Assembly: GCA_031375155.1 (NCBI GenBank)
Contig: JANMHM010000012.1
Span: 2,343 to 66,342 of the forward strand
Direction of reading: 5' to 3'
Length of the DNA: 64,000 nucleotides
Source: Candidatus Altimarinota bacterium
GTDB lineage: Bacteria > Patescibacteriota > Gracilibacteria > BD1-5 > UBA2023
Under the pieces are notes generated by a model. That model did no database searches and was not told where the DNA came from. It worked only from the letters and a program-made list of their open reading frames with translations. Position numbers and translations under genes: made by a program. Shown here one piece after another: positions 6,069 through 52,107 of the stretch (positions are counted from its first letter, which is position 1; each line of letters begins with the position of its first letter).

Positions 6069-6623
6069 ATGGCTGGTATAATCGGAAAAAAACTCGAAAT
6101 GACTCGTGTCCTTCATAATGGCGCGTTCACTCCTGTCACTCTTATCAAGGTTCCTACTCTCACTGTTGCCCAAGTCAAAACTCTGGAAACTGATGGCTAT
6201 ACAGCTATCGTCATTTCTATGAAAGACGGGAAGCAAGAGACACTCCGAGAAGTATCTATCACAGGAAACTTCACGGATCTCGAGAAAGGATCTGAGATCA
6301 CTCTCGATATGCTCGAAGGTGTCGTGAGTGTCAATGTAGTCTCTATATCTAAGGGTAAGGGTTTCCAAGGTGCTATGAAGCGCTGGAACTTCTCTGGAGG
6401 TCCTGGAGGACACGGACATAAATATACTCGTTCCCTCGGTTCTATCGGTACACGAAAACCTCGTCGTACAAAACTCGGAAAGAAGATGCACGGACATATG
6501 GGTCTCGATACGATCACCCTGAAAGATGTCCCACTTATCCTCGTGAATAAAGAACTCCGAGTGATCGCTGTAAAAGGTCCAGTCGCTGGCGCACGAAACT
6601 CACTCATCACTCTTACATTTTAG
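6069..6623 (+). CDS. rplC: 50S ribosomal protein L3
   Basis: Intact ORF starting MAGIIGKKLEMTRV. First gene of the cluster. Confidence 0.95.
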   Translation: MAGIIGKKLEMTRVLHNGAFTPVTLIKVPTLTVAQVKTLETDGYTAIVISMKDGKQETLREVSITGNFTDLEKGSEITLDMLEGVVSVNVVSISKGKGFQGAMKRWNFSGGPGGHGHKYTRSLGSIGTRKPRRTKLGKKMHGHMGLDTITLKDVPLILVNKELRVIAVKGPVAGARNSLITLTF

Positions 6624-6633
6624 TTTTTACTTG

Positions 6634-6677
6634 CCTAAGACCTAAGACCTAAGACCTAAGACCTAAAACCTAAAACC
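6634..6677 (+). repeat. Tandem heptamer array (CCTAAGA)x4 (CCTAAAA)x2
   Basis: Read directly. It ends 7 nt before the rplD ATG. Confidence 0.9.
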
Positions 6678-6684
6678 TCTCTCT

Positions 6685-7308
6685 ATGAAAGCTCCTCTCT
6701 TCGACACTCACGGAAAAAATAAAGGTACTATCGACCTTGAGGCTTCTCACTTTGGAGTCACTCCAAATGAAGGACTCATGCATCGACTCCTTATCCTTCA
6801 GCAGGCTAATGGCCGTATCGCTATAGCTCATACTAAGCATCGTGGTGAGATCCGAGGATCGACAAAGAAGCTTTTCAAGCAAAAAGGCACTGGTAGTGCT
6901 CGTATGGGTGATCGTCGTTCTCCTATGCGTCGTGGAGGAGGTGTCGTCTTTGGTCCTCGAAATGAGAGAAACTTCTCTGTTTCTATGAATGCCAAGGAAC
7001 GCCGTCTAGCTCTCCTTTCTCTTCTATCGACAAAAGCTACAGCAGAAAATATAAAAGTCGTTGAATCATTCGGAAAGGATACTGCGAAGACAAAATGAAT
7101 GGTAGCATTTCTCTCTACTATGGAGGCAAAAAAACCACTCATCGCTATTACTCGTGAAGAGAGATCAGAGATCGCAGGAGCGATGAATCTTCCAGAGCTC
7201 AAAGTCGTCAATATCGAATATCTCAATCCACACTCACTTCTCAAGTATACAGATCTCGTTCTCTCTGAAGCAGCTCTCAAGCACCTCTATACTCACTTTT
7301 CAAAATAA
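6685..7308 (+). CDS. rplD: 50S ribosomal protein L4
   Basis: ORFs 6685-7098 and 7099-7308 are in the same frame, joined by TGA. Confidence 0.95.
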
Positions 7309-7311
7309 ATC

Positions 7312-7400
7312 ATAGAACTTAGAACTTAGACTTTAGAACTTAGGAAAAACTCCGTTCAAATTCTCAGACTCTAAGCTCTAAACTCTAAATCCTAAACTCT
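7312..7400 (+). promoter_or_regulatory. Long imperfect intergenic hairpin (TTAGAAC arm versus CTAAAC arm)
   Basis: The left arm AGAACTTAGAACTTAGACTTTAGAACTTAGG pairs with CTAAGCTCTAAACTCTAAATCCTAAACTCT. I traced about 20 of 30 pairs by hand. Confidence 0.4.
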
Positions 7401-7732: not shown

Positions 7733-8575
7733 ATGTGAATCAAAAAGTATAAACCAACTACCCCATCTCGCCGTTTTATGACGGGACTCACCTATGAGGA
7801 GCTCACTACCAATGAGCCATACAAGCCACTTACGACTTTTAAGAAAGATCAAGCAGGCCGTAATCACGCTGGACGTATTTCTGTACGCCATCAGGGCGGA
7901 GGACACAAGAAGCTATACCGTATCGTAGATTTTATCCTCGATAAGTATGATATCCCAGCTCGTGTCGAGAGTGTCGAATATGATCCGTATCGATCTGCAT
8001 TTATTTCTCTTATCTGCTACCGTGATGGAGAACGTCGATACGTCCTCGCTCATACAGAGACTAAGGTCGGAGATGAGATCATCACAGCAAAACTCGCAAA
8101 ACCAGTCCCAGGAAATCGTATGGAAATCGGAAATATCCCGACAGGTCTTCTCGTGCATAATGTAGAAATGATTGTCGGACAGTGAGCTTCTACTATCCGT
8201 TCTGCTGGATCAAGTGCTCTTGTCCTCTCTCAGGAAGGTGAGTATACTCAGCTCAAGATGGCAAGTGGAGAAATCCGTCTTATCCATAAAAATTGCTTTG
8301 CTACTATCGGAACCGTATCGAATGCAGACTGGGATCAGATCACTATAGGTAAAGCAGGACGCAGTCGCTGGATGGGAAAGAGGCCTACAGTTCTCGGATC
8401 ATCTATGAATCCTGTAGATCATCCACACGGAGGAGGTGAAGGTCACCAGTCAGTCGGTCAGAGAAAAGGTCCAAAGACTCCATGGGGAAAACTGGCTCGC
8501 GGTGTCAAGACTCGCTCTCGAAAATATACTGATCGTTGGATTCTGCGTACTCGTGCTGGAAAACTTCAAGGCTAA
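7733..8575 (+). CDS. rplB: 50S ribosomal protein L2
   Basis: ATG 7733, with TGA as codon 2 (MGIKKYKPTTPSRR). ORFs 7778-8185 and 8258-8575 are in the same frame. Confidence 0.95.
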
Positions 8576-8603
8576 TTCTCTCTAAAATCTAAATTTCTCT
8601 CCT

Positions 8604-8867
8604 ATGACTCGTTCGCTCAAAAAATGACCATACATCGACCCGCGTGTGTCGAAAAAAATCGATGCACTCAATGCGAGTGGAAGAAAAAATGTCATCAAGA
8701 CATGGTCTCGAGCCTGTATGATTGCTCCTGAATTCGTCGGACATACCTTCGGTGTGCATAACGGAAAACAACATGTTCCTGTCTTCGTTACAGAAGATAT
8801 GGTAGGACACAAGCTCGGAGAGTTTTCATTTACTCGAAGATTCCAAGGTCATTCCGGAAATAAATAA
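8604..8867 (+). CDS. rpsS: 30S ribosomal protein S19
   Basis: MTRSLKK-G-PYIDP, with TGA 8625-8627 at the conserved Gly. Joins ORF 8646-8867. Confidence 0.95.
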
Positions 8868-8870
8868 TTA

Positions 8871-8975
8871 CCTAAGAACTTAGAACTGAGATTTTAGAAC
8901 TTAGGTACTCCTATGATTCGATCTCAGCTCTAAATCTCAAGTCCTAAGTCCCAAGATCTAAAACCTAAAATCTAC
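8871..8975 (+). promoter_or_regulatory. Long imperfect intergenic hairpin
   Basis: CCTAAGAACTTAGAACTGAGATTTTAGAACTTAGG faces CTCAGCTCTAAATCTCAAGTCCTAAGTCCCAAGATCTAAAACCTAAAATC. Confidence 0.35.
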
Positions 8976-8980
8976 TTTCT

Positions 8981-9307
8981 ATGAAAGCTTCCGTACAAAA
9001 TGTCCGCATCTCACCTAAAAAACTCAATGTGATTGCGTTCATTATCAGAAACATGACAGCAAAAGATGCTCTCGATACTCTCCGATTTATGCCAAAAAAA
9101 GGAGCTGATATCATGCTAAAGGTCCTCTCAAGTGCTGTGGCAAATGCGACTCATAATGATAGTCAAGTTCTCACTGATCTGACGATCTCTTCTGTGAGTG
9201 TCACACAGGGTATCGTCTATAAGCGTATCAATCCAGTTTCTCGAGGACGCGCTCACCGTATCCTCAAGCGTACATCTCATGTCGATCTCTCCCTTTCTGT
9301 AAAATAA
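8981..9307 (+). CDS. rplV: 50S ribosomal protein L22
   Basis: Intact ORF in the conserved position. Confidence 0.9.
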   Translation: MKASVQNVRISPKKLNVIAFIIRNMTAKDALDTLRFMPKKGADIMLKVLSSAVANATHNDSQVLTDLTISSVSVTQGIVYKRINPVSRGRAHRILKRTSHVDLSLSVK

Positions 9308-9326
9308 TTTTTTCTCTTACTCACCT

Positions 9327-9965
9327 ATGTGACACAAAGTCTCACCTCTTGCATTCCGCATCGGATACATCAAAACATGGCGTACTACAGGGTACTATGA
9401 CCGTAATGATTATGCTCTCCATACAGCTCAAGATGTAGCTATCCGTGCACTGGTCATGAAGCACTTCAAGAATCTTCCTCTTGCAAATGTATTTATGAAT
9501 CATAACGGAAATAGTCTCCTTTCTATTATCCTCTTTACTTCTCGTCCTGCGGTGATCCTCGGAACGAATGATGATAATATAAATGGTCTCAAGGATATCC
9601 TCGCAAAGAGATTTCCTGGATATACATTTTCTCTCGAAGTGAAGGAAGTGAAAAAACCGGAGCTCTCAGCTCAGATAGTAGCAGACTCTATCGCTCGTCA
9701 GATCGAGAAAAAGATGCCATATCGTCGAGTGATCAAAAATGCTATCGCAAAAACTATGGAGAAGGGAGGTCTCGGTATCAAAGTAAAACTCGGAGGTCGA
9801 CTCAATGGAGCAGAAATCGCTCGTCGTGAAACCTATAAAGATGGAAGCATCCCATCTCAGACTATCCGGGCTGACGTAGAATTTGCTTACGAAAGAGCAG
9901 AAACTCCATCAGGTACGATCGGACTCAAGGTCTGGATCTATAAAGGTGATGTTTTCAAAAAATAA
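9327..9965 (+). CDS. rpsC: 30S ribosomal protein S3
   Basis: ATG 9327, TGA as codon 2 (MGHKVSPLAFRIGY). Same frame as ORF 9456-9965. Confidence 0.95.
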
Positions 9966-14747: not shown

Positions 14748-14779
14748 TCCAAAGAATAAAAATCTAAAATCTACTTTCT

Positions 14780-15235
14780 ATGACAACTCTCACTACACTC
14801 AAGCCTACTCCAGGTTCTCTGACTCGTCCACGTCGCGTCGCTCGCGGTGTGAGCTCTGGTCTCTGAGGGACATGCGGACGCGGTATGAATGGTCAAAACT
14901 CTCGTACAGGAAAAGGAAAGCGCTATCCTACATTCGAAGGAGGACAGACTCGACTCTTTATCCGTACTCCGAAAAAGAGAGGATTCACTGCATACGCTCC
15001 GAAGGACTTCGTCACGATCAATCTCGATCAAATCCAGAAGCTCGCTGATGCTGGTATCACGACTGTGGACTACGCAGTCCTCTACGAGCGTCGTATGATC
15101 CGAGAGAAAGGAAAGCTCCTGAAAGTCCTCGGACGAGGTACTCTCACATCGAAGATCGAGCTCATGGCTGACTCCGTCTCTGCTGGTGCTCGTACTATGA
15201 TCGAGAAGGCAGGAGGTAGCGTGACCGTCGCATAA
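14780..15235 (+). CDS. rplO: 50S ribosomal protein L15
   Basis: ATG 14780. SSGL-G-GTCGRGMNGQ with TGA at a Gly position. Same frame as ORF 14885-15235. Confidence 0.95.
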
Positions 15236-18999: not shown

Positions 19000-19629
19000 T
19001 TATTTTTGGAGTGAGGCTATTATTTCTTCCCAATCCTTTACCCGATAAAGAAGTGGATGTTCGAAGTGTTCATTCCTATTCCAGGGCTTTTCCAGAAGTA
19101 TACAGGCGATACCATGTTCTATGAGATCGAGAGCATTTTCTATATGGTCATCGATCATCATACTGATCCCGAAACTTTTACAGATATCTGATTTTGGCCT
19201 CGCATCTTTCGAGAAATGATTCACGAAATATACATTTTTTATCGTAGGAAGGTGTGTATGAACCCAATGTATGGTACGAGGTTTTTTCCAATCTTGGTCA
19301 TCAGATCGAGCCGTGATAATAGACAGTTCTATCCCTCGTTTTTCGAGAAGTTGTACTCCATTCTTTGCGTTTTGCATGAGGGGGATACTCTGTGGATCGA
19401 GAGTTTTTTGCCCATAGGATTCCCAGACGAAACTGCTATCAGCTTCCGTGAGGGTCGGATCGAGCCCGAGAAAATCATACTTGGTGATATCTTCGAGAGA
19501 TCTGATACCGAGAAGCTTTCCGTGCGAGTGAGCCTCATCGAGCATCCCCATGACTGTACTCGCGAGCGTCTCATCGAGATCGAGACCGATATGGTTATGT
19601 TGTGCCCAGTCGAGGCGTGTGAGAGACAT
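19000..19629 (-). CDS. HAD-superfamily 5'(3')-nucleotidase-like hydrolase
   Basis: DLDETL (DxDxT) motif. The start could be 19629 or 19692. The rest of ORF 19000-19995 is antisense to fur and was rejected. Confidence 0.55.
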   Translation of the reverse strand: MSLTRLDWAQHNHIGLDLDETLASTVMGMLDEAHSHGKLLGIRSLEDITKYDFLGLDPTLTEADSSFVWESYGQKTLDPQSIPLMQNAKNGVQLLEKRGIELSIITARSDDQDWKKPRTIHWVHTHLPTIKNVYFVNHFSKDARPKSDICKSFGISMMIDDHIENALDLIEHGIACILLEKPWNRNEHFEHPLLYRVKDWEEIIASLQK

Positions 19630-20041: not shown

Positions 20042-20773
20042 ATGCGACACGCTCTCGAGATCCATCACCTTACCAAAAAAATCTGAAAGGCGATATTGCT
20101 CCAAGATATTCACTTCTTTCTCGCGAAGGGGGAAGTGTTTTGATTTCTCGGGCCCAATGGCGCTGGAAAGACCACCACGATGAAGTGTATCCTCGGTATC
20201 ATGCGACCGACATCAGGCGAAGTCAAAATTCTCTGAGGTTCTATCGATGATGCAAATATTCGCAATAAGTTAGGATTCATGCCAGAGAATACGTATCTCT
20301 ACAAGTACCTCACAGGAGATGAGTTTCTCGACTTCAATGCTTCCTTCTACCATCTCACATGAGAAAAACTCGAAAAGAGAAAGACCGAGGTTCTCGAAAA
20401 AGTCGGACTCACTCATGCTCGTGGGAAACGACTCCAGACCTACTCCAAGGGGATGCTCCAGCGTATCGGACTTGCTCAAGCGATCCTGCATGATCCAGAG
20501 GTTGTATTCCTGGATGAGCCTATGAGTGGGCTCGACCCTGTCGGTCGCAAGATGGTGAAAGACCTCATGCTGGAACTGAAGTCTCAGGGAAAAACCCTAT
20601 TTTTCAATACCCATATCCTCTCTGATGTCGAGGCGATCTGTGACCGATTTGCTATCATATCCCGCGGAGTCATCGTAGCCAATATGAGAGTATCAGAACT
20701 CGATAAGCCTATAGAAGACTTCTTCATGGAACGTATCATGAGTCATCAAGGAGAGGATTTCCGAGGAGAATAG
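20042..20773 (+). CDS. ABC transporter ATP-binding protein
   Basis: ATG lies 1 nt after the fur stop. Walker [10 protein letters not shown], signature YSKGMLQR, Walker B VVFLDEP. 4 in-frame TGA. Confidence 0.85.
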
Positions 20774-23161: not shown

Positions 23162-23207
23162 TTGATACAGCATTATAGAGGCTTTTACCTTATGGGCAAA
23201 AGACAAC

Positions 23208-23245
23208 AAAAACCTCCTGAAGCTTCAGGGGGTTTTTGTTTTTTG
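23208..23245. terminator. Rho-independent terminator
   Basis: AAAAACCTCCTGAAGCTTCAGGGGGTTTTTGTTTTTT. Confidence 0.7.
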
Positions 23246-23397
23246 ACATTTCCCGACTTTTCTATACTATCTCCTCACATTTTCGTATGAGTTCTTACGA
23301 GCTCTCGTATTTCTTATTGTCGAAATACGAGATTTTCGCGAAGTGAGAAAGCCAAGAACGTTATGACTTCGAAGCCCTCATATATAACCCCTTTTCC

Positions 23398-25854
23398 ATG
23401 ACTCCTCCAGCAAATCAAGATGACTACTACGCTCAGGTAAAAGCCGCAGGTGCATCTGGTACCGATGATAAAAAACCACTCAAACTCAAGCTCAAGGCTG
23501 TCGTGAAAAAACCGATAGAAGAAGAAATTCCACAAAAAGAGGAAGATATTTCCCCGCGTGAAGTCGTACAAGAGGAACGTCCGAAAGCACGTCTCGTGGA
23601 GCGTGAGCATGCGAGCTCTGGACTCATGCGAAGCGTGATGAAAGGAGGTGATGATAAAAAATGAGACCAGAGAGATAGTCGAGAGAGAAGTACATTTCCG
23701 AAGATATCTTTCGCGAAAGCAGAACACAAGGTAAAAATCCTCGAAAATCGTCCTGTCATGCAAATTCCGGATGAAGTCCCGAAGAGGCGCACTGACGGAA
23801 CTGCTCCAGTCGGTGCAGGAGCAAAACGTCTTCGCGATGACTCGAAGCCAATGTTCCAGAGAAATATCGCCTTTGCAACACCGCAGAAAGATGGTACCGC
23901 GAAAAAATGAGGAAAATGAAAGTGAGGAAAGGACTATGTCATGGAAGATGGAAAGAGAAAAAGTGTGAAGACGATCGGAGGAGTGGCAGACGATGGATCA
24001 TTTCGCCGATCAGGAAAACTCGGAAAGAAAAAGTGAGAAAAAAATATCGAAGATCTCAAACAAATTCTCGTCGACCGTACGGGACAAGAGGTCTCTGTCG
24101 GTGATGTGATATCCGTGAAAGAGTTCTCAGATAAGATCGGTATACCAGCGGTGAAGGTGATCGGAGAGCTCATGAAAAACGGAGTCCTCGTCAATCTCAA
24201 TGCTCCTATCGACTATGATACGTGTTTCCTTATCGGAGAAGCATTTGGTATCAAGATCACCAAAGAAATCTCAGAAAATGCATCAGTATCAGACCTCATG
24301 GATGGGAACATCGACGAGATGATAAAAGAAGAAGATAGCTCCCGCCTCGTCTCTCGCTCACCGATCATCTCCGTCATGGGACACGTCGACCATGGAAAGA
24401 CCTCGATCCTCGACTACATCCGGAAGGCATCGGTCGTATCAGGAGAAGCATGAGGTATCACTCAGAAGATCGGAGCGTATCAGGTCGAGAAAAATGGAGG
24501 GAAGATCACCTTTCTCGATACTCCAGGACATGAGGCCTTCACTATCATGCGAGCTCGCGGAGCCAAACTCACAGATATTGCTGTCATCGTCATCGCCGCA
24601 GACGAGGGGATGAAACCACAGACCATAGAGTCGATCAACCACGCGAAAGCTGCAGAAGTCCCGATGATCATCGCGATCAATAAGATGGACAAGCCAGGAG
24701 CTAATATCGACCTCATCAAATGACAAATGGCAGAGCAAGGACTCCAGCCAGAAGATTGGGGAGGCAATACCGTCGTCGTACCTGTCTCAGCGCATACAGG
24801 ACTCGGTATGGACTCTCTCCTCGAGATGATCCTCCTCCAGGCTGAGATGCTCGAACTGCGAGCCAATCCTGACCGTGGTGCTATCGCAACGGTCGTCGAA
24901 GCGCATCTCGATCAGAAGCTCGGATCGGTCGCTACTATCCTAATCAACACGGGAACTATTCGCAAAACAGACAACATCGTCTGTGCAGGAGCATATGGAA
25001 AAGTCCGTACACTGAAAGACTACAAGGGGAAAAATATCGACTCAGCAGGTCCAGGAGTACCAGTGCAGATCACGGGTCTCTCTGATGTCGTCCAGGGTGG
25101 AGATATCCTCCAGGTCCTCTCGACTCCAGAGCTCGCGACGACTCGTGCGAAGGAGTACTCTCTCGCGAAAAATAAAAAATCGATCCACGCCTTCGAATGA
25201 GCCTCTCTCGGTATGCTCATGAGTCGACTGAAGTCTGGAGCCCTCAAACAGCTCAAGATCGTCCTCAAGACGGATACCGGAGGATCACTCGAAGCGCTCA
25301 AGGCTTCTCTCACGAAGCTCTCGACTCCTGAGACACAAGTCGTGTTTATCCACTCGGCAGTCGGAGATGTGAACCAGTCTGATGTCATGATGGCAGGGAC
25401 TTCACAGGCGCTCCTCATCGCGTACAATGTCGGAGTCAATCCTGCTGCGAAGTCAGCACTGTCTCAGTCGAAAATAGAATTTATCGATAAAAAAGTCATC
25501 TATCACGTCATCGAGAAAGTCGAATCTATCATCACCGGTATGATCGACATCCGCTACGAAGACCTCGAGCTCGGTGCGTCTCTCGTGAAAGCGATCTTCT
25601 TCACTGGCAAGAACAACTCTATGATGATCGTCGGTATGGGAGTCACTTCAGGAAAGATCGAGAACCGAGCAAAAGTCCGTGTCATCCGCGCAGGGTCCAA
25701 GGTCGGAAGTGGTGAAGTCGTGAATCTGAAGATGGGTCCACTCGATGTGAACGAAGTCGAAGAAGGAAATGACTGTGGTATCAACTTCAAGGGAGACGTG
25801 CAGATCATGGAAGGTGATGTGCTCGAGTTCTATAAGATGGTACAGAGGAAATAG
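23398..25854 (+). CDS. infB: Translation initiation factor IF-2
   Basis: Fragments 23398, 24106, 24727 and 25213 are all in one frame joined by TGA. Motifs [25 protein letters not shown] and NKMD. Confidence 0.95.
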
Positions 25855-25879: not shown

Positions 25880-27202
25880 ATGACTAAATATTTCATTATT
25901 TTCATTACATGTTTTTTTCTATTTGCTTGCTCAAATAAGGATATTCTTATAGATCAAGATTCTCATACTTCCTCATGAAAAGAGATGAATATATCTAGTA
26001 CGTGAACTATATCAGGAGAAATTTTGATAAAACGTATTATCCCAGTGGGAACAGATATTGAATATGATAACATATTTGAGCAGTTTGATGATGTAGCACA
26101 AAAATACCAAGATGCTCGTGAGAGACAGGATTATACGTTTTCGAGACAAAAACAGGATGCAGATATTATAGAAAAAAATAAAAATACCTTTATACGACTT
26201 TTTCAAGAAAATAAACTGCCTATTCTACATACTCTAAAAATAGGAGATAAAAAAGTATTTATATCAGCGCCATATGGTAATCATCCAGTAGAAATGTATC
26301 CAGAATGATATGTTTCTTGTTGATTTTACTTTAGTCCGTGAGGATCTTCCACGCATAACATCTGTATGGCATTTACAGATTCAATCGATACAAAACTCAC
26401 TACAGAAATGGTGTTTAGTAGTAGTAACGTAAATTATAATATAATTGCTACGGGCTCTTTCTTTATAAACCATTACTCAGATGGTGATATGTGTGCGAGC
26501 TGAGGTAATTACGCATTATTCGATGAAAATCTAGTAACCATAAGAAACTTAAATTATGTTAACAGTTCATGTAATTTTGTGAGGACATCCTTTTCAAAAA
26601 ATGGATATACTATAGAGTTTCTCGATTCTCACGCAGAAAATCCTTTCGCGACCAGCTCATGAGTCTATATTCCTCGCGCTTCCCATATGAGGATACTCAG
26701 TGGTAGTTTATTCACGGAAAGAGTACTCTATGAGTATGTCTCTCATAGAGTTTGATTCACTTTTGATCCTATAGAGAATACTTTGAATGGTGACACTTTT
26801 GATTTTACTTTTTGATGAAAAAACTTTTCCCTTACTAGAAAAGATATAGAATCTTTCGCGCCATCTTTTATTACCGATGCAAACAAACTTCGTTATCAAT
26901 TTACTCTTTCGGGAGAAGAATGAATTGATGAGGAAATATATGGTCGCTTAATGTGATCTATAACAACCCCAGAAAATAATCGTTATTATGATATTATTTC
27001 GAATATTTCTGTACTATCCTGCCAAAAGAACTCATCACAATACGACGATGAGCCTTATACGCTCTTAACTTATACATGAGGTGAAGTATTTCGATATAAA
27101 ATTGATACAAAATTTTGAAATAAGTGTCCTATTCCATATAATTTTTCTTTTAAAAGTAGTTCGGGAAATACATTTAATACAGCAGTAAAAATAGTCAGAT
27201 AA
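25880..27202 (+). CDS. Hypothetical lipoprotein (440 aa)
   Basis: Lipobox MTKYFIIFITCFFLFAC. I checked frame 2 line by line to TAA 27200. About 16 in-frame TGA. Confidence 0.65.
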
Positions 27203-27317
27203 TTATAGACAGATAAACTTGCATGAAATATGTAATTTATGATATAAAAAGTTTGATTTCTCGGAAAATCTGATATAATAATCTCGTCTTCCAAGATAAA
27301 GGAAATATATCTCCTTT

Positions 27318-27350
27318 GAAAAATCCCTCTGTCACGAGGGATTTTTCTTT
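27318..27350. terminator. Rho-independent terminator
   Basis: GAAAAATCCCTC-TGTCAC-GAGGGATTTTTCTTT. Confidence 0.6.
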
Positions 27351-27560
27351 GTTGATCTTAGCGTTTCCGCTTCACAACTCGCTCATAGATACCAGATATT
27401 TCTATCCGTATCAAGCGATGCTTCCAGTAGGGAAGTTCCAAGATAAACTTCTTCATAAGAAGAAATGGTTAGGAGATATATCTCCTTGCTCCTTCTGGAA
27501 GCAAGGAGCTTCGAAATTATATATTTTTCTTCGAAAAATCAACTTTACCAAAATACATCA

Positions 27561-27607
27561 TTCTGACCACAAAATTTGCTCACACTTTTCCCTTCAGGAA
27601 GCCATAG
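27561..27607 (+). repeat. 47-bp direct repeat, copy 1
   Basis: TTCTGACCACAAAATTTGCTCACACTTTTCCCTTCAGGAAGCCATAG, identical to 31718-31764. Confidence 0.9.
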
Positions 27608-27626
27608 CATACAAGTATCTAGTGTT

Positions 27627-27669
27627 CCTGTCATTTCGAGCGGAGATGATAAGTGAAGTCGAGAAATCC
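27627..27669. repeat. Hairpin repeat unit CCTGTCATTTCGAG...GTCGAGAAATCC
   Basis: Same termini family as the copies at 173, 18549 and 55708. Confidence 0.6.
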
Positions 27670-27731
27670 TTCTCTCAAAAAACTCCTCTTTCCTCGGTTT
27701 ATTATTTTAACTGCTCGAGTCAATAGTTAGT

Positions 27732-28991
27732 TTAGGGTGCGTTTTTTATCACGAGCTCTATGGCAGATATATAATCTTCTATAAAACTGTTTTCAAATAA
27801 GTCTAAAGATTGTGCCTCAGACACATAAATCTCTATAACTCCTATAGGATTTTCAGCTCTACCAAGAGGTATAATCATCACGCCATATATATTGTGATGA
27901 GACTTGATAGATGAAAATTGTTCGAATTCACCATGTTTTTCAGGCTCAACTATTTTGATACTTTTCCCTTGGTTGATAGTATATTCTGTAGCGCTTCCAC
28001 TATATTTTTTCTTTGTGCCAGTAGGGAGTATTTGTATTTTTCCCATAGCACCATCGAGAGTCATATTTCATTTCGTATCGCACTTCCAGAGCTGTACGAG
28101 TTCACTATCTGAGATAAAAAGGATCGATCGAAGAATGAAGTCATAAAAATTCATACGAGACCAGTACTGCCCTCGTCAGAACTTTATAATATCCTGTATA
28201 TAGTCAAGCTGTCTTTGTAGCAGTCCTATCTGAGTATAGGCATCGCGTATCTTCACACAGTGCTTATCAATTTGCTCTTCGATCTTGATCTGTCTAGTGA
28301 TATCTCGACCGATGAATAGGTATTCATGATCCTCCTCGTCTGTACTCATAGATGTGATAGCTCCAGAAATCATGAGAGCATTCCCAGTCTTATCTACAGC
28401 ATGAAATCGTATCTGACTGAAGTTATCTATGGGATGTGTGAAATTTTCGAGAGATTCTTCTGGAAATAGCAAGCTAATACCAGAAGCCTCTAGTTCAGAG
28501 AGTTTATATCAGAAGATTGTTTTTGCACCCTTATTCCATGAGGTTATTTTTCCATTTTGGGAATAAGAAAAAATACAATCACTTGCCATACCGACAGCTT
28601 GTGATATGGCTTTTTCTTTTTTCTGGAGTTTTTTATATTCCCTGAGATCTGTCATAATCCCTACAGTTCACCCTCCTGGTATAGGTGACCCGCTTAGAAG
28701 TACAGGTATCTTCTTTCTTGACTTACTAAGTAATATGCCCTCATAGTTCGATCTGACTCATTGCTTTCTTTTCGTGGTGTTTGTATTTCGTACTGTTGTA
28801 GCACTCTCTTTATCCCAGAAATCATATGACTCTCTTCCTATCATCTCATCGAGAGTATACTCCATAATTTCACAGAATTTCGGATTTGCAAAGATGGTTC
28901 GTTCGTGCTCATCTCATACCCACACTGCTTCATTCATCGTATCGATGAGATCACGGAAAAAATGTTCAGGAACTTTTTCTAAATGAGGCAT
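27732..28991 (-). CDS. PAS-PAS-GAF sensor protein with no recognisable output domain
   Basis: ATG (reverse complement) at 28989-28991 to TAA at 27732, one frame through about 7 TGA. PAS-like LIDTMNEAVWVGDEHERTIFANPKFCEIMEYTLDEMIG and AVGMASDCIFSYSQNGKITSWNKGAKTIFGY. GAF-like C-terminus. Confidence 0.65.
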
Positions 28992-29048
28992 AATATAATG
29001 ATATGTGAAGATACTCTATGGAAAAATGCGAAGAAGTAAAAAGTTTTC

Positions 29049-31517
29049 TTACCCTCATTTCATTCGGAGAGTTTCTGGCTTCCTCCGCCCCTTTCATCAT
29101 ACTTGTGAGCGTTCGAGGGGAGCCTCAAGTATAGCCATCGCACTCTTAAGAGGAAGCAATTTTCCATCATGGGCCTTTATGCTACGATCAACAAGCCTCT
29201 GGATATGTGCTGTGATCTTGGCTATATCTGGAGGAGACTGGGCATTTTTTACAGAGAGATGGACGAGTATTCGTACGATCATACTCGCACTTCAGAGCGA
29301 CCCATGGATACTCTCATCTATGATCTCATGTACTCTACTATCGAAGTTCTCTGGACCTATCTGGTCACGTACATACTGTCGAGCTTGATTGCGTCGATGG
29401 TACTGGTATCATGCCAGTACACCATTTCTTGTAGTTACAGTATTACGTTGCTTATTGATATGAGCTTTCTTAGAGTCTTTCTCTATCTCGGTGAGAGAGT
29501 ATCATGGTGTGAGCTCTGCACGCAAAAAATCGGCTACACGGAGATCTCTCTCTTCATCATGAGATTTCTTATAGATGACTATCGATATGACTTCATATTC
29601 GAGATTGCATACTATCCAGAGCTGAAATGATGAGTCCTCTAGTAACTCGAGCTTATCTGAGTCCAGGCGAAGCACTCGAGTATATGACTGACGTATGCCA
29701 TCACTGATGTAGACTCATCAAGCTTTAAGTGTTTTTGCGGTATCGGAGAGTCACTGGTAAAAATCAGCATCATCTTGATGTGAGGTGGATCGTTTTGAAA
29801 CGATCATATCGAAGCTATCATTTTTGTATATTTGCGGTATATCACGGAAATCTCACCAGGTAAAATGAAAAGGATAACCTCCATAAGGAAGAAGTTCTGT
29901 AATATTTACATTTCCGAAAGCACGCACAAACTCATTACTATTCAAGATTATTGCATCTGCACCTTGATTCTCCCTTAAGAGTGCATCCATAAAATCTCTA
30001 TCAGCATCTCACTCGAATTCACCATGTGTATCTATACGGAGAGGTTTTGTATTGAGACTCATCTTTTTACACGCCGAGTTGATCTTTCTTACGATATCCA
30101 TGATCGTGGGTGGATCGAGAGACATATTCGTCGGGCGAACGTCGATACTCCCATACTGGTTGGCATTATCGTGGCGATACTTCTGACGAAGCGCATCTAT
30201 GATATGATATGCTATATACTCTCGCAGATAGTTTTTTCACTTTATTTTCGGTATTATTTCTCCTATTTTTACTGAAAATACCCGTACCATATCTATGTAG
30301 AGATTATCACCGATTCATTCTACGTGGCACTGAGGAAAAGTTTCTCAGGCAAGGGCTGATTGGTTATTCCCAGATCATTTTACGAGTATTTTTATAGAAT
30401 CTGTACTTTCAGTATGATTATCAAGAAAACTTTGTAGACCATTCGGAATAAAACCGAGCGATTTATCGAGCTTCCCACTTCATACAGACCAGTCTGGAGC
30501 CAGGTTTGGCGTGAGAAATCCAGCATCATTGAGCGCCTGTATACATGTGGATGTCAGATTTCTATTATCAATATTTTCGAGCCATTTCTGATACTGAGCT
30601 GGCGTATCTATATTATCTTGTTGAAGTTTCATATACCACTCTAGAAACCCTACAGTATTCATGATATCCATATGCGTGAGAACTTGTCATTGCTCTCTTT
30701 TTGTACGTTTCCTCGGGAGTGTTCTCGCCTTTCGAAACGGTATAGCATCCTCTTCACTCTTGTCGATTCTTGGATTCCTGCTTTTATGTAGATCACCAGC
30801 TACATATACTCTCTCTCAATCCGGTGTAGAGATTTCCTGACCAGAAAATCCGAGCGTCATATGGAGGAATGCTTTATGAGTATCTTTTCCTATGGGGAAG
30901 GCTATCTCGTTACCATGCCTCATGTGTTGTGTTCATCCTGGAGTATGTAGTGATGTCGGAACGAAGATGCACATACCTGGCAATTCTGCAGCTCCACTAT
31001 CATCCCCCGTGATACTTACTACTCCTGTTTGCGCCTTGATTCCAGAAAAATCTAGGTGATATCATTTGTACTTCTGGTTTATTGTTTCTATCTGTGCCGT
31101 TATAAGAGAGTCAGTCGTGAGGCCATAGTCTACCATACTTGTCGCATTGACGCATGTCACTGTATACTGTATCTTTGGATTATTCTCTAACGATACTCGA
31201 ACGAGAGTATTGGTAAACATATCTTTTAGCTCGTCATCAGTCATGCTGCATATTTCTAGTGGTCGATACTGTTTACCAACATTCTTATGTAACATCAGAG
31301 TTATTACTGCAAGTGCGTACTCTTCAGGAATCACCATTCCTATATAGGGCGTGCCAGTATTATTTTTCCACTTCTTGCTTCGCAGGCGCTCTACCCGGAG
31401 TGGAAGTGGTTTATTTATGATTGCAAGAAGTTGTCATTCAGATTGATACTTCTGAGAGAACGTCTCTATTTTGCTTTCGACTACTTGTCTTACTTGAGTA
31501 CGGCGTTCGGACAACAT
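29049..31517 (-). CDS. Large orphan protein (about 822 aa) with a C-terminal Rossmann/SAM-methyltransferase-like region
   Basis: I traced a single minus frame codon by codon from ATG 31515-31517 (alternative 31569-31571) to TAA at 29049, with many TGA. It links ORFs 31062-31337, 30480-30671 and 29097-29282. ...FDMIVSKRSTSH...LKAGGVYISD is methyltransferase-like. Confidence 0.6.
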
Positions 31518-31717
31518 ACGTAAATATTTTTGTGCTCACGAAGAAAGAGATAGTGACTGCAGTGGTCACATTGCTTGTGGTTCAGGACGTGCAGAAGACG
31601 ATGATAATGACACTTAAAAATATTTATAAGAGAGAATATCAGTATATATTACATTTAAATTTTATTTGTCAATATTATTTTCACACTCTTCCGAGAAAGA
31701 CGTACAGAAAGCCACAC

Positions 31718-31764
31718 TTCTGACCACAAAATTTGCTCACACTTTTCCCTTCAGGAAGCCATAG
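31718..31764 (+). repeat. 47-bp direct repeat, copy 2
   Basis: Identical to 27561-27607. Confidence 0.9.
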
Positions 31765-31880
31765 TCAGAGTATACAGAAGAGAGCGCAAGAGATTTTTCG
31801 AAATTGATTTGCATTTACCCCTCTTTTTTATATACTACACGAGCTTATTTTTGTATTTTACTCACCTTTTCAGCATCAGT

Positions 31881-32159
31881 ATGCCGAAAGACGACAAGAT
31901 CGAAGTTGAGGGAAAAGTACTAAAAGCCCTCCCATGAGCCATTTTTGAAGTAGAGCTCCCTGAAGCTTTCTCAAATATGGTGATACGTGCGTATGTCGGT
32001 GGAAAAATGCAGAAAAATAGGATCCGTCTCATCCCCTGAGATACTGTCACTGTCGAGCTCACTCCGTATGATCTTACCCGTGGTCGTATCACATTCCGCA
32101 AGCCAAATGCGAATGCCCCAGTGAGAGTCCCAGGAACCAATAGCAACAATCGTCGATAA
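31881..32159 (+). CDS. infA: Translation initiation factor IF-1 with a C-terminal extension
   Basis: MPKDDKIEVEGKVLKALPGAIFEVEL...RGRITFR, with 2 TGA. About 20 extra C-terminal residues. Not in the standard-code track. Confidence 0.9.
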
Positions 32160-38581: not shown

Positions 38582-41074
38582 ATGTCTAAGTATTCGAAAT
38601 TCACTCCTAAAAATCATCAGAAACTCATCTCTGATCTCGAAAAAACTACGACCGAAGAAGAAGTAAAACTCTACTTTTCGAAATTTTTCGATGTGAAGAT
38701 AAATACCTGAGATCGTCATGATCTCTATACGAGAGAAGCGCTTTTTGAATTCAAGTGGGATAAAAATTTCGAAAAAATAGCTGAGCGCTCAAAAATCCTT
38801 GCTCAAGCTCTCTACTATATCCGTGAGATTAAGTATTCTACAGGAGATATATCGTCGGATAAGACGATACCACCTCACATCGTCCTCATCGACCGTAATG
38901 AAGCTATCATCGAGATTACAGCAAATTGGAAGACGTTCTATGATGATTCAAAGTATGACTGGACGCGTACACCTTCGAGTCCAGATCCTCAACTTGTCGT
39001 CGATATTTCCCGCGATAATACGATCGTGACAGCACACATCTATGATCTTATAGAAATAGAGGATTTCCGTATATTCACTGAGAAGCTCGATGATATCTAT
39101 GATCCCCAGATACGACTTGATCTCGATAATACTGATAAGAAACTCATTACCGAAGAGAATTTTGAATCCGTCTATTTCTACTGGAAAGACCAGATATTCG
39201 GAGATCGAAAGACTCATACCAAACTCCCGAATCTTTTCCTCGCGGATATCCAGGAAGGGAAAGCTATGCTCAGTCGTGAGACGGGGGATCTCTACTTCAA
39301 CCTTGGCAATACGAAGAGTGAAGTCATAAATATCACTCCAAGTGACTATGAATACTTCTGGTCACTCTATGCTCGTGTCCGCAACACGGTAACTATTAAG
39401 GGCATTATCGCAAAGATCGACCGACTCTCCGAAGACAATATCCGTCGTCGAGAAGGAGAGTTCTTCACCCCGATCCGATTCGCCACACGGTGACTTCACT
39501 ATCTCGCAGAAGTACTCTGAACTGACTGGCACAAGGAATACAAAATCTGGGATATGGCAGCAGGAACAGGGAATCTGGAACTCAATATCCCCGCAGAATC
39601 TTATCATAATCTCTATCTCTCGACCCTTCATCATGAAGAAGTAGATTATCTGGAGAGGATATTCCATGGAGCGAACTGCTTCCAGTATGACTACTTGAAT
39701 GATGACGTCGATCTCCTCTTCCGTCCTGAGAATCAAGAAAGTCTCATGAGTGATAAATGGAAACTCCCACAGAAGCTCCGAGATGATCTCGCGAATCCCG
39801 CGAATAAGTGGGTCGTGCTGATCAATCCACCATTTGCTACGAGTCAAGAAGCGGGTTCAACCAGTATGAGTAAGGAATGAGTCAGCGATACCCGAGTACG
39901 AAAATATATGCATGATCTCGACCTTGGAGAAGTCTCGCGAGAACTTTTCGTCCAATTCATCTTCCGTATCCAGAAAGAGATTCCCAAGGCACATCTTGGA
40001 CTATTTTCGAAAATTAAATACCTGAATGCTACAAATGATGAAAAGTTTCGAAGTAAAATTTTCGAGTTTGCATTTCAAAAATGATTTATTTTCTCGTCAG
40101 AAAACTTTAGTTGAACAAGGGGTAAATTTCCTGTTTGATTTCTCGTATGGAATTTAGGTATCCAAAGTAATTTACATAGTCAAAAGGTTTGCATAGATAT
40201 ATTTAATAATTCAGTTCAAAAAATTGGCTATAAGAAGATACAAACGACACTCAAATCTTGATTTTTAAGTACATGGATTGAGAGACCAAAAAATACGAAG
40301 CTATTCCCACCAATCAAATCTGCTATAAATTTTTGATTTGAAAATAAAGATGTCCGAGATCGTATTTCAGAAAACTATATCGGTTCTCTCATGTGTCTTT
40401 GAAATGATGTACTTTCGCAGAACGCTGTAGCAGTTTTATCAGCTCCATATGCAAGTGCTTGAGCACATTCAATAGAACAAAATATTTTTGAAAAGAGTAT
40501 GATCGTGCATGCGGTTCGTCGTATCCCAAAAGCGACTTGGATTAATGATCGAGATCAGTTCCTCCAACCAAATCGAGAGCTCTCTGATGAATTTATTTCT
40601 GATTGTGTGGTATGGTCACTCTTTGCAGACTCAAATCAGACGAGCTCTATGCGAGATGTGGAATACAAGTGAGAGATATATCAGATCGTGAATCAGTTTT
40701 TCCCATTTTCGAAGCGTGAGGTAGAGGAGTGGGATTGTCCGAATCCAGATATATTTCTCGAAAACTCGGGAGATAGGTATATTGCAGAGTGGCTCAGATG
40801 AACGACTCTTTCACCTGAATCAAGTGCTCTATTGAATGCAGGAAGAGAGATTTATAAAGTATTTTTCCGAGAGTGGACACACCTCGATCGACATAGCTGG
40901 AAGATCTCGAACTGGGATGCAGGGTGGTATCAGATCCGCAATGCCCTGAAGGAAAAATACGGTATGGATGAGATGAAGATACTGAAAGACGCGCACAGGA
41001 AACTCAGAGAGAAACTCCTCCCGCAGATATATGAGTATGGATTTTTGCCAGAGGAGATGGTGGAAAATAGATAA
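38582..41074 (+). CDS. Fused Type IIG/IIL-like restriction-modification enzyme (nuclease + N6-adenine methyltransferase + target-recognition region), 830 aa
   Basis: One frame through about 16 TGA. N-terminal PD-(D/E)xK-like HDLYTREALFEFK. FFTP, motif I DMAAGTGN and motif IV NPPF at 39554-39880. Confidence 0.6.
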
Positions 41075-41095
41075 AATATCGTTATAATAATCTCA

Positions 41096-42718
41096 ATGCT
41101 TACCGATCCACTTATATTTCTCGATACAATCCTCTGAAAGCCAGAAAATGAGCTTGTGGAATTTAAGCTTGCTGAGAGATGATTTAGTGAGAGAAAACTC
41201 TGGGATTACTTCTCTGCACTCTCAAATGAAGCAAATCTTCATAACAAAGAATCAGCATATTTCATACTCGGCATAGATCAGAAATCTCATCTCCCTGTTG
41301 ATACTACAGCATGGTCGGGAAAGAATGCTCTCAGAGATCTAAAAAATCAAACGCATAAAGATCTCGGCATAGGATTTAGAGAAATTTATGAGCTTAGAAA
41401 AGATAAAAAAAGGATTCTGATATTCGAAATTCCCGCTTGCCCACACTGAAATCCGGTGGCATCGAATGGATTCTATTATGCACGAGCCTGAGAGAGTCTT
41501 GTTGCATTAGACCTGAGAAAACTCGATGAAATACGAGGACAGAAAAATACTGATTGGTCAGCACTTCCATGCGTATGAAGTAGTGTCGATGATTTAGATG
41601 AAGAGGCGATTAGATTTATCAGGTGATTACTTTCCAGAGAGTATTTTGATGCCACATGGACTACAGATTCTATAGAAAAAATATTGAATCGCTTATCCCT
41701 TATGAGTAAGGAATGAGTACTCAATAATACTGCAGTTTTATTTTTATGAAAACATGAAAGCGCTATCAAATACTTACATACAGATATTTGTAAGATTACA
41801 TGGAGATATCAGGATATCAAAAATAATATTGAAGAGCGACTACATGGTCCATTATATCCCCCATTTATACTGGCGATACCAATCATTATCCAATCTATAA
41901 ATCGGTTTAATGTTACTATTGGCGACTTATCCTTGTTTCGCGAAGATATTCGCCAGTATGATGAAAAATGAATAGAGGAAATGGTGGTCAATTCATTAGC
42001 ACATAGAGACTGGGAAATACCTATGTGGAATGAAATTATACAAACGCCAGATCAATTAGAAATTAGAAATCCCGGAAAATTCCGAGCTCAACTTGATAGT
42101 GTGCTGCTCAAAAACTATGTAAGAGAATATGCATATCCCAACTTATGTGAATTTCTTACAAAAATAAAACTTATGGAGCGTGAGCGTCGAGGATTAGAAA
42201 AAGTATATAATGCTCAATTGAGAAAATGACTTCCAATTGGTAATGATTTCCTTCCGGAAAGGACGACTTTTATATTATCATGAAAAATAAAAAATATTGA
42301 TTTTGCAAAAGCCCTTCTGAATAGCACAGATATATCTTTAGAACAAATTATTATATTAGATAAGCTGATAATTTGACCAGCTGAATTAACGGATATCGAA
42401 TCGAGCAAGGTACATCTCTATGTAGAACAACAAAAACGAACAAACAGATATATTATTCGACGATCCTTTTTACAGGGCAATAATATGCTCGATGAACATT
42501 TCCTTGATTGATATTCATCTTTAAAAACCAAAGAACAAGTATTTCTAGATTTTGCTAAGAAAAATCAAGGAAAAATAACTCCACGAAATGGGTATATCAT
42601 CTTTCCGAATGATCCAAAATCTTCAGTAAGAGTTATTATTATGAATATGGAAAAAAATTGAGTTCTTGAAAAAATCAAAAGATGAGAATATCGAATAGTT
42701 AAAAAGAAAAAAGATTAA
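41096..42718 (+). CDS. AlbA_2 (Schlafen-like) / HATPase_c_4 / wHTH putative regulator (COG2865-like), 540 aa
   Basis: One frame through many TGA. N-terminus ...ENELVEFKLAE... and ...ESAYFILGIDQ... are AlbA_2-like. The middle ...VNSLAHRDWEIP...IRNPG is HATPase_c_4-like. Confidence 0.55.
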
Positions 42719-51019: not shown

Positions 51020-51790
51020 CTATGTCCGAAACCGACTCGCTTCTACTTTTTCTCTGCACTTTTCCCAGAGAGCATCAGAGATATCTGCGTTGTTCCATAC
51101 AGATTCGACATCTTCATCTCACTCGAATTCTTCGAGCATTTTATAGATTTTGAGAGCATTCTCCTCATCGGTGACTTCGATATAGGCTTTCGGTATATAC
51201 TCAAAACTCCCTTTTGCTATAGCGTACCCAGCTTTTTCGAGTGATTTTCGTACCTCGGCGAACTTCGTCCTATCGGTCAGGATCTCTGCGTCACTTCACT
51301 CGATCGTATAGTCCTCTGCGGGAGTCTCCATGATCGCCATTTCGAGCTGTTCTGTATTCGAAGATTCAGAAACCATGATCACTCCGCGATACTCGAAAGC
51401 GAAGCTCGACACTGTCCCTGTCTCTCCGAGAGAGCCTCCGAATGCAGAGAAGATATGCCGCATACTCGGTGCGGTGCGGTTGCGATTATCTGAGAGGGCT
51501 CGGACGATCACACCGACTCCACCAGGAGCATATCCCTCATAGATAATCTCTTCGACTTTCGCAGATTCCTTATCCAGTCAGGCTCACCTGCGAATAGCAC
51601 GATCGATCACATCGATATTCACTCCTGCTTTTTTTGCGGTGGTGATGGCATCAGCGAGAGCATGATTTTGCCCTGGATCAGCCCCTCGTTCTGCGGCTAT
51701 GGCTATGATCTTCGAGTGGATGGCATAGATCTTCGATTTTTCTTTTGCACCGGCTTCTTTCTGAGCGGCGACAGTAGGTCAGCGTCACAT
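51020..51790 (-). CDS. yebC: YebC/PmpR-family transcriptional regulator
   Basis: ATG (reverse complement) at 51788-51790, followed by TGA, CGC, TGA (MGRG...). Motifs YEGYAPGGVGVIV and LSDNRNRTAPSMRHIF. TAG at 51020. Confidence 0.85.
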
Positions 51791-52107
51791 AAATTTGAGA
51801 ACTTAGGTTTTAGGATTGAGAACTTAGGATATGGAAAAATGGAGGGAAGGCAAGAGGAGAAAAGTAGAAAAAATGCAAAAAGTGAAAAAGTAGAAAAATA
51901 TGGGGTGGGGCATACTGGAAAATAAAAACTGCGATTCTTGTATACAAAAATTTCTAACAAATTTCTAACATTTCGGGTAGATTTTTCTAAAATACTTTGA
52001 CTCTACTCTCTCTCTCGATACTATTCGAAACGCTTCTGGAAATCTTTCTAGTGAGCCAGGAGAACATCCTGACTTCATCATACCAAAATATATAGGAATA
52101 GCTTCAA

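Follow-up and report, generated by a model that had tools for sequence, protein, structure and literature searches.

Two identical 47-bp sequences stand as direct repeats around a pair of genes between infB and infA, in a 64,000-nucleotide stretch of DNA (contig JANMHM010000012.1, hereafter the window) from a Gracilibacteria-type bacterium. This geometry raises the question of whether the repeats are the ends of a mobile cassette or the trace of some other event. The first-pass annotation, which was made from the letters of the sequence alone, proposed att-type repeats left by site-specific integration, or a cassette able to excise by recombination between the repeats, and gave a duplicated regulatory or small RNA (sRNA) module as an alternative. 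Our analysis favors a different answer, to which we assign a probability of roughly 0.6. The repeat appears to be a duplicated box from the region upstream of the infA promoter, and it probably marks a recombination joint in a hypervariable slot rather than the end of a mobile element.

The 47-bp repeat and its distribution

The 47-mer, TTCTGACCACAAAATTTGCTCACACTTTTCCCTTCAGGAAGCCATAG, is found, as initially reported, at positions 27561-27607 (copy 1) and 31718-31764 (copy 2), on the plus strand in both cases and with 47 of 47 nucleotides identical. These are the only exact copies in the window, and no further copy exists there at up to three mismatches (0 of 100 shuffled sequences matched). 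Read with genetic code 25, the gene order is infB, a lipoprotein gene, copy 1, a PAS gene, a large open reading frame (ORF), copy 2 and infA. The distances first given are correct: 124 nt separate the PAS stop codon from copy 1, and the large ORF has copy 2 147-201 nt upstream of it. The borders of the repeat had also been described as sharp. This is true of the right side, where gapped alignment finds no similarity beyond the repeat, but on the left side a weak residual likeness of 8 in 15 nt persists.

An independent assembly, that of run SRR20217215 in Logan, yields contigs that are almost identical to the window (L001, 100%; L010, 99.95%). L001 runs rightwards from copy 2, and L010 is a 4170-nt unitig corresponding to the enclosed segment. 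The assembly breaks exactly k-1 = 30 nt inside each 47-mer copy. These breakpoints indicate that the k-mers of the raw reads contain the repeat itself, and also the point where its final 30 nt meet the hairpin segment that follows copy 1.

The first-pass annotation had suggested a search for further copies of the 47-mer. Among 185,579 genomes, one per species, the left 25-mer has a single match, which is the orthologous site upstream of infA in the relative that we call L002. Neither half of the 47-mer, nor a degenerate pattern covering all variants, matches the IMG/VR viral collection. The right half, which ends in TAG, bases that vary between lineages, and the degenerate pattern gave no match in the JGI metagenomes either. 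Every relative that was fetched, each with up to 20 kb of sequence, carries exactly one copy of the box. With its only match at the orthologous infA site and one copy in each fetched relative, the 47-mer does not behave as a generic dispersed repeat.

Copy 2 belongs to the infA control region

Relatives were fetched through homologues of RpsM, whose gene contains no TGA codon, and the records obtained are labelled Gracilibacteria. They were aligned by an anchor that comprises the infA -10 element and the initial transcribed region, TATATACTACACGAGC, and that is kept in 11 of the 11 relatives compared. Two of the comparators recur below. L015 (GCA_035907335.1) represents a related lineage with 92% identity in the promoter region and is a different strain from that of the window. 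L002, which was fetched also as L013, is contig CAYSEP010000042.1 of a 'Candidatus Peribacteria' metagenome-assembled genome (MAG). Comparison of the infA upstream regions across these genomes, another check that had been suggested, reveals a conserved box and variable DNA from there leftwards up to infB.

Copy 2 is the native copy and forms the distal box of the upstream region of the infA operon, between divergent promoters. It is located at about -125 to -79 from the predicted start site of the operon. A promoter scan places the core promoter at 31808-31836 on the plus strand, with TTTGCA/TTGCAT, a 16-17-nt spacer and TATACT. The infA gene follows at 31881-32159 (plus strand, code-25 translation) as the first gene of the operon and the right anchor of the variable slot. 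The operon order is infA-rpmJ-rpsM-rpsK-rpsD-rpoA-rplQ, and this synteny is kept in all relatives.

A box with the consensus CTGACYACA-N5/6-TRCTCA is present about 111 nt upstream of the infA -10 element, at the same offset, in eight lineages (the window, L015, L013, L003, L009, L011 in flipped orientation, L024 and L021). L015 and L013 match the 47-mer of the window at 45 of 47 positions and L003 and L009 at 31 of 47, and the DNA further left cannot be aligned. The first 44 nt are the same in both window copies, L015 and L013, where neighboring DNA differs by at least 8%. The last three bases are TAG in both window copies versus CGG in L015 and L013. Relative to L002, the infA upstream region is 91-92% identical, compared with about 81% for the protein-coding part of the operon. 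Copy 2 is native to the infA control region and conserved within it.

On its left, copy 2 is bordered by a putative divergent promoter region that, with the spacer to the box, spans 31643-31717 on the minus strand. This region includes a TTGACA -35 sequence at 31672-31667 and a TATATA -10-like sequence at 31648-31643. Its sequence TTGTCAATATTA is kept in L002/L013 and in L003 despite different downstream genes, and the homology of the window to L002 begins at 31665. The region would act as a promoter for the minus-strand cargo of the slot.

Most likely, the box is a candidate protein-binding site in the control region of the infA-rpoA operon. Upstream activator and UP-type elements are known at the promoters of ribosomal and translation-factor genes, an example being the Fis sites upstream of E. 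coli rrn P1. Like such elements, the box is conserved, non-coding and at a fixed distance from a strong housekeeping promoter, and it is untranscribed and has no RNA structure. It differs from them in its greater upstream distance (about -79 to -125) compared with a classical UP element, and it bears no resemblance to the known sites that were tested. A duplicated regulatory module, as offered in the first-pass annotation, fits better than att sites, since what is repeated is a conserved box at the distal end of the infA promoter region.

An sRNA module, the other form of that alternative, is not supported. The 47-mer folds no better than shuffled sequences on either strand (z = +0.2 and +0.3). 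No Rfam family reaches its gathering score in the window, and permissive scans of both intergenic regions gave sub-threshold noise only. A small RNA or riboswitch reading of the 47-mer was rejected on these grounds. A small-peptide reading was set aside as well, because frames through the 47-mer are not kept in L003 and L009, where the minus-strand ATG frame runs into a stop codon when inspected by eye.

A hypervariable slot between infB and infA

The gene infB (23287-25854, plus strand, code-25 translation) is the left anchor of the slot and adjoins it in L002, L003/L004, L005/L006, L007/L008 and L009. The slot is empty in L005/L006, where only a 157-nt spacer is present. It contains a single minus-strand gene in L002 (413 aa), L003/L004 (365 aa) and L009 (304 aa, methyltransferase-like), a single plus-strand gene in L007/L008 (318 aa), and three genes in the window, namely the lipoprotein gene, the PAS gene and the large ORF. 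By blastp, none of the slot proteins of different genomes is related to another. The infB-infA interval is thus a hypervariable slot: it carries 0, 1 or 3 genes, most of them orphans and none related to another.

In L007/L008, the gene in the slot encodes the 318-aa membrane-type protein and has partial paralogues with 79-94% identity about 10 kb downstream in the contig. In L007 the slot gene is at 8436-9341 and the partial paralogues are at 19135-19611 and 20351-20446.

Relatives also supply each of the two contexts in which the box occurs in the window. In L015, a promoter-terminator unit (module M, described below) is followed by 13 nt, the box, the infA promoter and infA, which joins the left context of copy 1 to the right context of copy 2. 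This single box with joined outer flanks resembles the empty site for which a search had been recommended, found here in a related lineage. In L002/L013, whose RpsM protein is identical to that of L015, a minus-strand cargo gene is followed by the TTGACA region and the box. L015 and L013 diverge exactly at the first base of the box. From L015 and L002/L013 together, both flanking contexts of the window can be recognized as chromosomal arrangements of relatives, which are here in tandem. Moreover, L002/L013 and L003 keep the TTGACA region and the box with other cargo, and therefore the left flank of copy 2 is ancestral chromosomal DNA.

A further arrangement is seen in L019, which shares 98% identity with the window on the right side of the box and has the end of a plus-strand gene on the left. 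Within the first 14 nt of its box it carries another allele type, and this switch indicates a crossover inside the box. Even at 98% identity to the window across the infA promoter region, relatives still differ in their left context.

Copy 1 and its flanks

Copy 1 is non-coding and is situated between the terminator region of the lipoprotein gene and the 3' end of the PAS gene. A promoter scan found no promoter, and there is no gene, at the spacing seen for copy 2. To its right, the left end of the enclosed segment (27608-27731) begins with the joint directly after copy 1 and continues with a repetitive extragenic palindrome (REP)-like hairpin and then the 3' flank of the PAS gene. Similarity to the context of copy 2 ends at 27607 or 27608. 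The first base after copy 1 is C, which matches the L019 allele (CCATAGC), and so the joint may lie one base further right. The hairpin, GTTCCTGTCATTTCGA...GAGAAATC, occupies 27624-27670 and has a second copy at 170-215. The junction between copy 1 and the hairpin is contained in the Logan unitig L010.

To the left of copy 1 is module M (27241-27352, plus strand), which consists of a promoter-like TTGATT-15-TGATATAAT, a short hairpin and a strong predicted intrinsic terminator at 27318-27347. The module is 98% identical to nt 36-147 of L015, a value above that for the infA promoter region (92%). Its fold has z = -4.1, the transcript would be about 65 nt, and the terminator stem resembles the infB terminators of relatives. 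No Rfam family matches the module. It may encode a small RNA, or it may be what is left of an infB terminator region.

Module M and copy 1 are separated by a spacer of about 206 nt (27353-27560) that is absent from L015, which has 13 nt there. The spacer includes a diverged second M-like unit at 27434-27520 and a perfect 16-bp palindrome, AGGAGATATATCTCCT, at 27471-27486. Besides this internal M-like duplication, it has no significant match.

A recombination joint as the origin of copy 1

The tandem arrangement is most simply explained by the stacking of two alleles. At least two allele types whose left-hand context runs up to the box exist in this clade. The A-type, of the kind seen in L015, carries a plus-strand gene, module M with its terminator and the box. 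The B-type, of the kind seen in L002/L013 and L003, carries one or more minus-strand cargo genes, the putative divergent TTGACA promoter and the box. The A-type parent of the window would have carried infB, the lipoprotein gene, module M, the box and the infA promoter, and the B-type parent the hairpin, the PAS gene, the large ORF, the TTGACA promoter, the box and the infA promoter. One recombination event, in which an A-type chromosome met either a B-type chromosome or an incoming DNA fragment, would have stacked both alleles. One side of this event would be homologous, in the conserved infA or infB block, and the other side would be illegitimate, with its joint immediately after copy 1.

Such a pattern would correspond to homology-facilitated illegitimate recombination or, equivalently, to unequal crossover. 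The left edge of the repeat would be the end of the likeness between A and B alleles, the right edge would be the illegitimate joint, and the length of 47 bp would be accidental. Copy 1 would be a scar of the event, and the resident allele could have been either A or B. The stacking model is supported by the coincidence of the left repeat edge with the exact divergence point of L015 and L013, and by the abrupt right edge at 27607/27608. In principle, the two copies would be long enough to mediate rare RecA-dependent deletion of the 4157-bp segment, which would yield an A-type locus again.

Integration of DNA through one homologous and one illegitimate end is an established outcome of homology-facilitated illegitimate recombination, which has been described for naturally transformable bacteria and for E. 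coli conjugation (PMC3240628). A comparable stacking model has been invoked for the effector/immunity arrays of Vibrio cholerae's type VI secretion system (T6SS) (PMC5361080). The window shares with this route the addition of DNA beside a conserved anchor and the combination of one homologous with one abrupt junction. It also shares the partial retention of the resident locus, which turns the shared sequence into a direct repeat, and no dedicated recombinase is needed. The window differs in that neither the donor nor the recipient is observed.

Several points weigh against this explanation. No parental B-type chromosome with the present PAS/large-ORF arrangement is found among the relatives, and we infer the recombination mechanism, its direction and the illegitimate joint. 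The perfect identity of the two copies, including TAG, would also fit gene conversion or a site-specific event of recent date. The breaks at or inside the box in three different left contexts could also mark a preferred site of recombination. L015 and L019 are represented by short contigs (1.9 and 1.4 kb) that show part of the slot only, and the copy count covers the window, so that extra copies might exist elsewhere in the source genome. Finally, the role of the box as a regulatory site is putative.

Alternative explanations

Several classes of mobile element can be compared directly with the locus. A Pfam scan of the three slot proteins and of ten further unannotated ORFs, which are a subset of the ORFs in the window, found no recombinase, integrase or transposase. 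The reported absence of such enzymes therefore holds for these thirteen ORFs, and the slot is flanked by infB and by genes for ribosomal proteins. No tRNA or tmRNA gene was called by ARAGORN across the 64-kb window, the inner ends of the enclosed segment carry no inverted repeat, and neither the large ORF nor the 4.7-kb region has a match in phage or plasmid collections.

A transposon or insertion sequence with target duplication was rejected because there are no terminal inverted repeats and no transposase among the scanned ORFs, and because the duplication is 47 bp versus the usual 2-14 bp. An integron attC cassette was likewise rejected, since the 47-mer has no hairpin signal and no IntI integrase was found among the scanned ORFs. 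A transposase-like remnant at the left end of L011 was dropped for lack of Pfam support.

The slot does resemble an integron array in that variable and often orphan genes gather beside a fixed platform that bears a promoter. Unlike an array with attI and attC sites, it has no IntI that could be found, no stable fold of the 47-mer and no common short junction core, and the cargo of relatives has no distal repeat. The attL/attR sites of genomic islands and prophages offer another comparison, as they also place identical direct repeats around a gene set for which a single-copy relative exists. The window differs from them in lacking a detectable integrase and a tRNA or tmRNA target, in the chromosomal nature of the inner arm of copy 2 in cassette-free genomes, and in cargo that has native composition and the recoded TGA of the lineage.

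Four further readings have to be weighed against the recombination joint. It is unlikely that the 47-mer is an att core at which a recombinase encoded elsewhere integrated a circular PAS/large-ORF cassette that may re-excise, even though the repeats are identical and direct, the right border is sharp, and L015 has a single copy with the outer flanks joined. A hypervariable site with different cargo in each lineage, and breakpoints at or inside the box in three contexts, would also be expected of such a system. Relative to L015, the window does contain a 4.16-kb insertion bracketed by duplicated host sequence, and this part of the proposed geometry stands; the features that define an integrative element are missing. 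No recombinase is encoded in the cassette or in the other scanned ORFs, the window offers no tRNA target, and no phage or plasmid relatives are known from the searches above. What would have to be the arm to the left of copy 2 is conserved chromosomal DNA in cassette-free L002/L013 and L003, and therefore a phage or island attP arm is not supported. Each of these relatives has one box, so its cargo is unbracketed, and the junction of B-type cargo lies to the left of the TTGACA box and not at the 47-mer. Relatives with the same gene pair but no flanking repeats, which the first-pass annotation named as evidence against its proposal, exist in part: L011 and L012 carry the pair without repeats, in another arrangement.

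Functional duplication is doubtful. In this case copy 1 would have been selected as a second factor site that brackets or insulates the PAS/large-ORF unit, titrates the factor or loops with copy 2, and perfect identity would reflect purifying selection rather than recency. The invariance of the first 44 nt of the box against the differences nearby is in keeping with this view. So is the 12-nt sub-motif CCTTCWGGAAGC, which occurs four times in the window at up to one mismatch compared with 0.47 expected. Its sites are 27420-27431 (minus strand, one mismatch), 27491-27502 (exact), 27591-27602 and 31748-31759, of which the first two lie in the spacer to the left of copy 1. However, no fetched relative has a second copy of the box, and copy 1 lacks a promoter or gene at the spacing of copy 2. 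In addition, the two copies agree even in the right half of the box, which is less conserved and includes the lineage-specific TAG, and this points to recent copying rather than site-by-site selection. An assembly artefact, in which co-existing A-type and B-type strains were merged through the shared 47-mer and the tandem is absent from any cell, is very improbable. The source is a metagenome, the short-k Logan contigs break at the repeat, and slot haplotypes are diverse among close relatives. However, a 47-bp repeat is far below ordinary read length and the larger assembly k values and hence should be resolved, and L010 k-mers join the last 30 nt of the 47-mer to the hairpin/PAS flank, a junction not expected from a chromosome that is purely B-type and has infB on the left. 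It is distinctly unlikely that the box is the docking site of a novel Gracilibacteria gene-capture platform, served by a recombinase acting in trans or independent of any integrase, with the window as a two-cassette array in which each of two captured units in tandem is closed by the box. If this were true, the platform would repeatedly place new, mostly orphan genes beside the strong infA and divergent promoters.

Genetic code and genes of the slot

The gene coordinates first proposed hold if genetic code 25 or 4 is applied, and not otherwise. This organism reads TGA as sense: translation of infA gives LIP[TGA]DTV where E. coli has LTGDKV, which places TGA where Gly is expected, and recoding TGA nearly triples the summed length of long ORFs. 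Most likely, the window uses code 25, in which TGA is read as Gly. The reading of UGA as glycine is known for the Gracilibacteria lineage (PMC4032931). ORF tools that apply table 11 break up nearly all genes of the window. Database copies of two window proteins (P0121 and P0124) are 97% identical to the code-25 translations and have W in place of G, and thus those records read TGA as Trp (code 4).

The PAS gene (27732-28991, minus strand) encodes a 419-aa sensor-type protein with two stretches that match Pfam PAS_9 (E = 9e-21). Of the PAS-PAS-GAF architecture first assigned, the two PAS stretches are retained and the GAF domain is not found. Pfam recognizes no output domain in the protein. The gene has six in-frame TGA codons, a GC content of 0.38 and a codon-usage divergence of 0.041.

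The large ORF (29049-31517, minus strand) encodes 822 aa, or 840 aa from an alternative start at 31571, and has 23 in-frame TGA codons. Its position and size are as first described. The label of orphan is too strong, as 1.84 billion representative proteins include three full-length relatives (P0122, P0123 and P0125) besides its own record P0121. Pfam gives sub-threshold methyltransferase matches only, no PDB sequence matches the protein, and the AlphaFold model has a mean predicted local distance difference test score (pLDDT) of 37. Region 580-690 of the protein weakly matches many other large unannotated proteins.

The large ORF adjoins the PAS gene in all contexts found, which are the window, L011 and L012. 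The latter two are contigs of another lineage, with 87% identity between them. The pair directly adjoins the infA promoter in L011 and the final 203 nt of infB in L012, and its orientation is divergent; neither contig has a 47-mer pair around it. Between the window and these contigs the PAS proteins are 71-72% identical and the large proteins 37%, which reveals very different rates. So far as sequence comparison indicates, the PAS gene and the large ORF are a conserved gene pair. Both genes have GC content and codon usage that are ordinary for the genome, with sense TGA throughout. They are compositionally native and not newcomers.

At nt 307-576 of L012 (flipped), a 5' fragment of the PAS gene that contains an in-frame stop has been joined to the final 203 nt of infB. 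This fusion records a previous rearrangement or duplication at the equivalent slot of another lineage.

The lipoprotein gene (25880-27202, plus strand) encodes a 440-aa orphan and starts 25 nt after the infB stop codon. With a GC content of 0.317 and a third-position value (GC3) of 0.224, against window means of 0.429 and 0.409, it is the compositional outlier of the region. The protein has no Pfam match, and its own record is its sole database match. PADLOC matched no defense-system model to the slot proteins.

Other features of the window

Several features outside the slot deserve mention. The spacers of the ribosomal-protein operon are filled with 7-nt tandem units (CTAAGAC/CTAAAAC, with AGAACTT on the opposite strand) that stop immediately ahead of start codons, at 6621-6692, 7305-7400, 8866-8987, 14748-14788 and 51789-51829. 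No Shine-Dalgarno-like sequence is visible upstream of infA, rpsM or rpsK. A near-perfect 36-nt palindrome, AACAAAAACCTCCTGAAGCTTCAGGGGGTTTTTGTT, at 23205-23240 upstream of infB is probably a bidirectional terminator.

At 38582-42718, an 830-aa protein with an NPPF motif is encoded beside a 540-aa AlbA_2/Schlafen-like protein. The former looks like a DNA methyltransferase by eye and has no Pfam match. Genes of similar size and position are present in L003/L004, where the product of the second also has an AlbA_2 domain. The two genes may be a defense-type module.

Biological implications

The att-site interpretation of the repeat is thus corrected: the repeat would be an ordinary recombination scar, and the genes that it brackets would not be a mobile cassette. 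The box, with its fixed position upstream of the infA-rpoA operon, may serve as a regulatory site in a lineage with almost no characterised promoters. Together with the infB-infA slot and the conserved pairing of a PAS sensor with a large, fast-evolving protein, it is of some value for the genomics of the candidate phyla radiation. The infB-infA slot could mark strain-level recombination and gene turnover, and the 47-bp repeats predict a polymorphism in the population, in which the 4.16-kb segment would be present in some members and absent from others.

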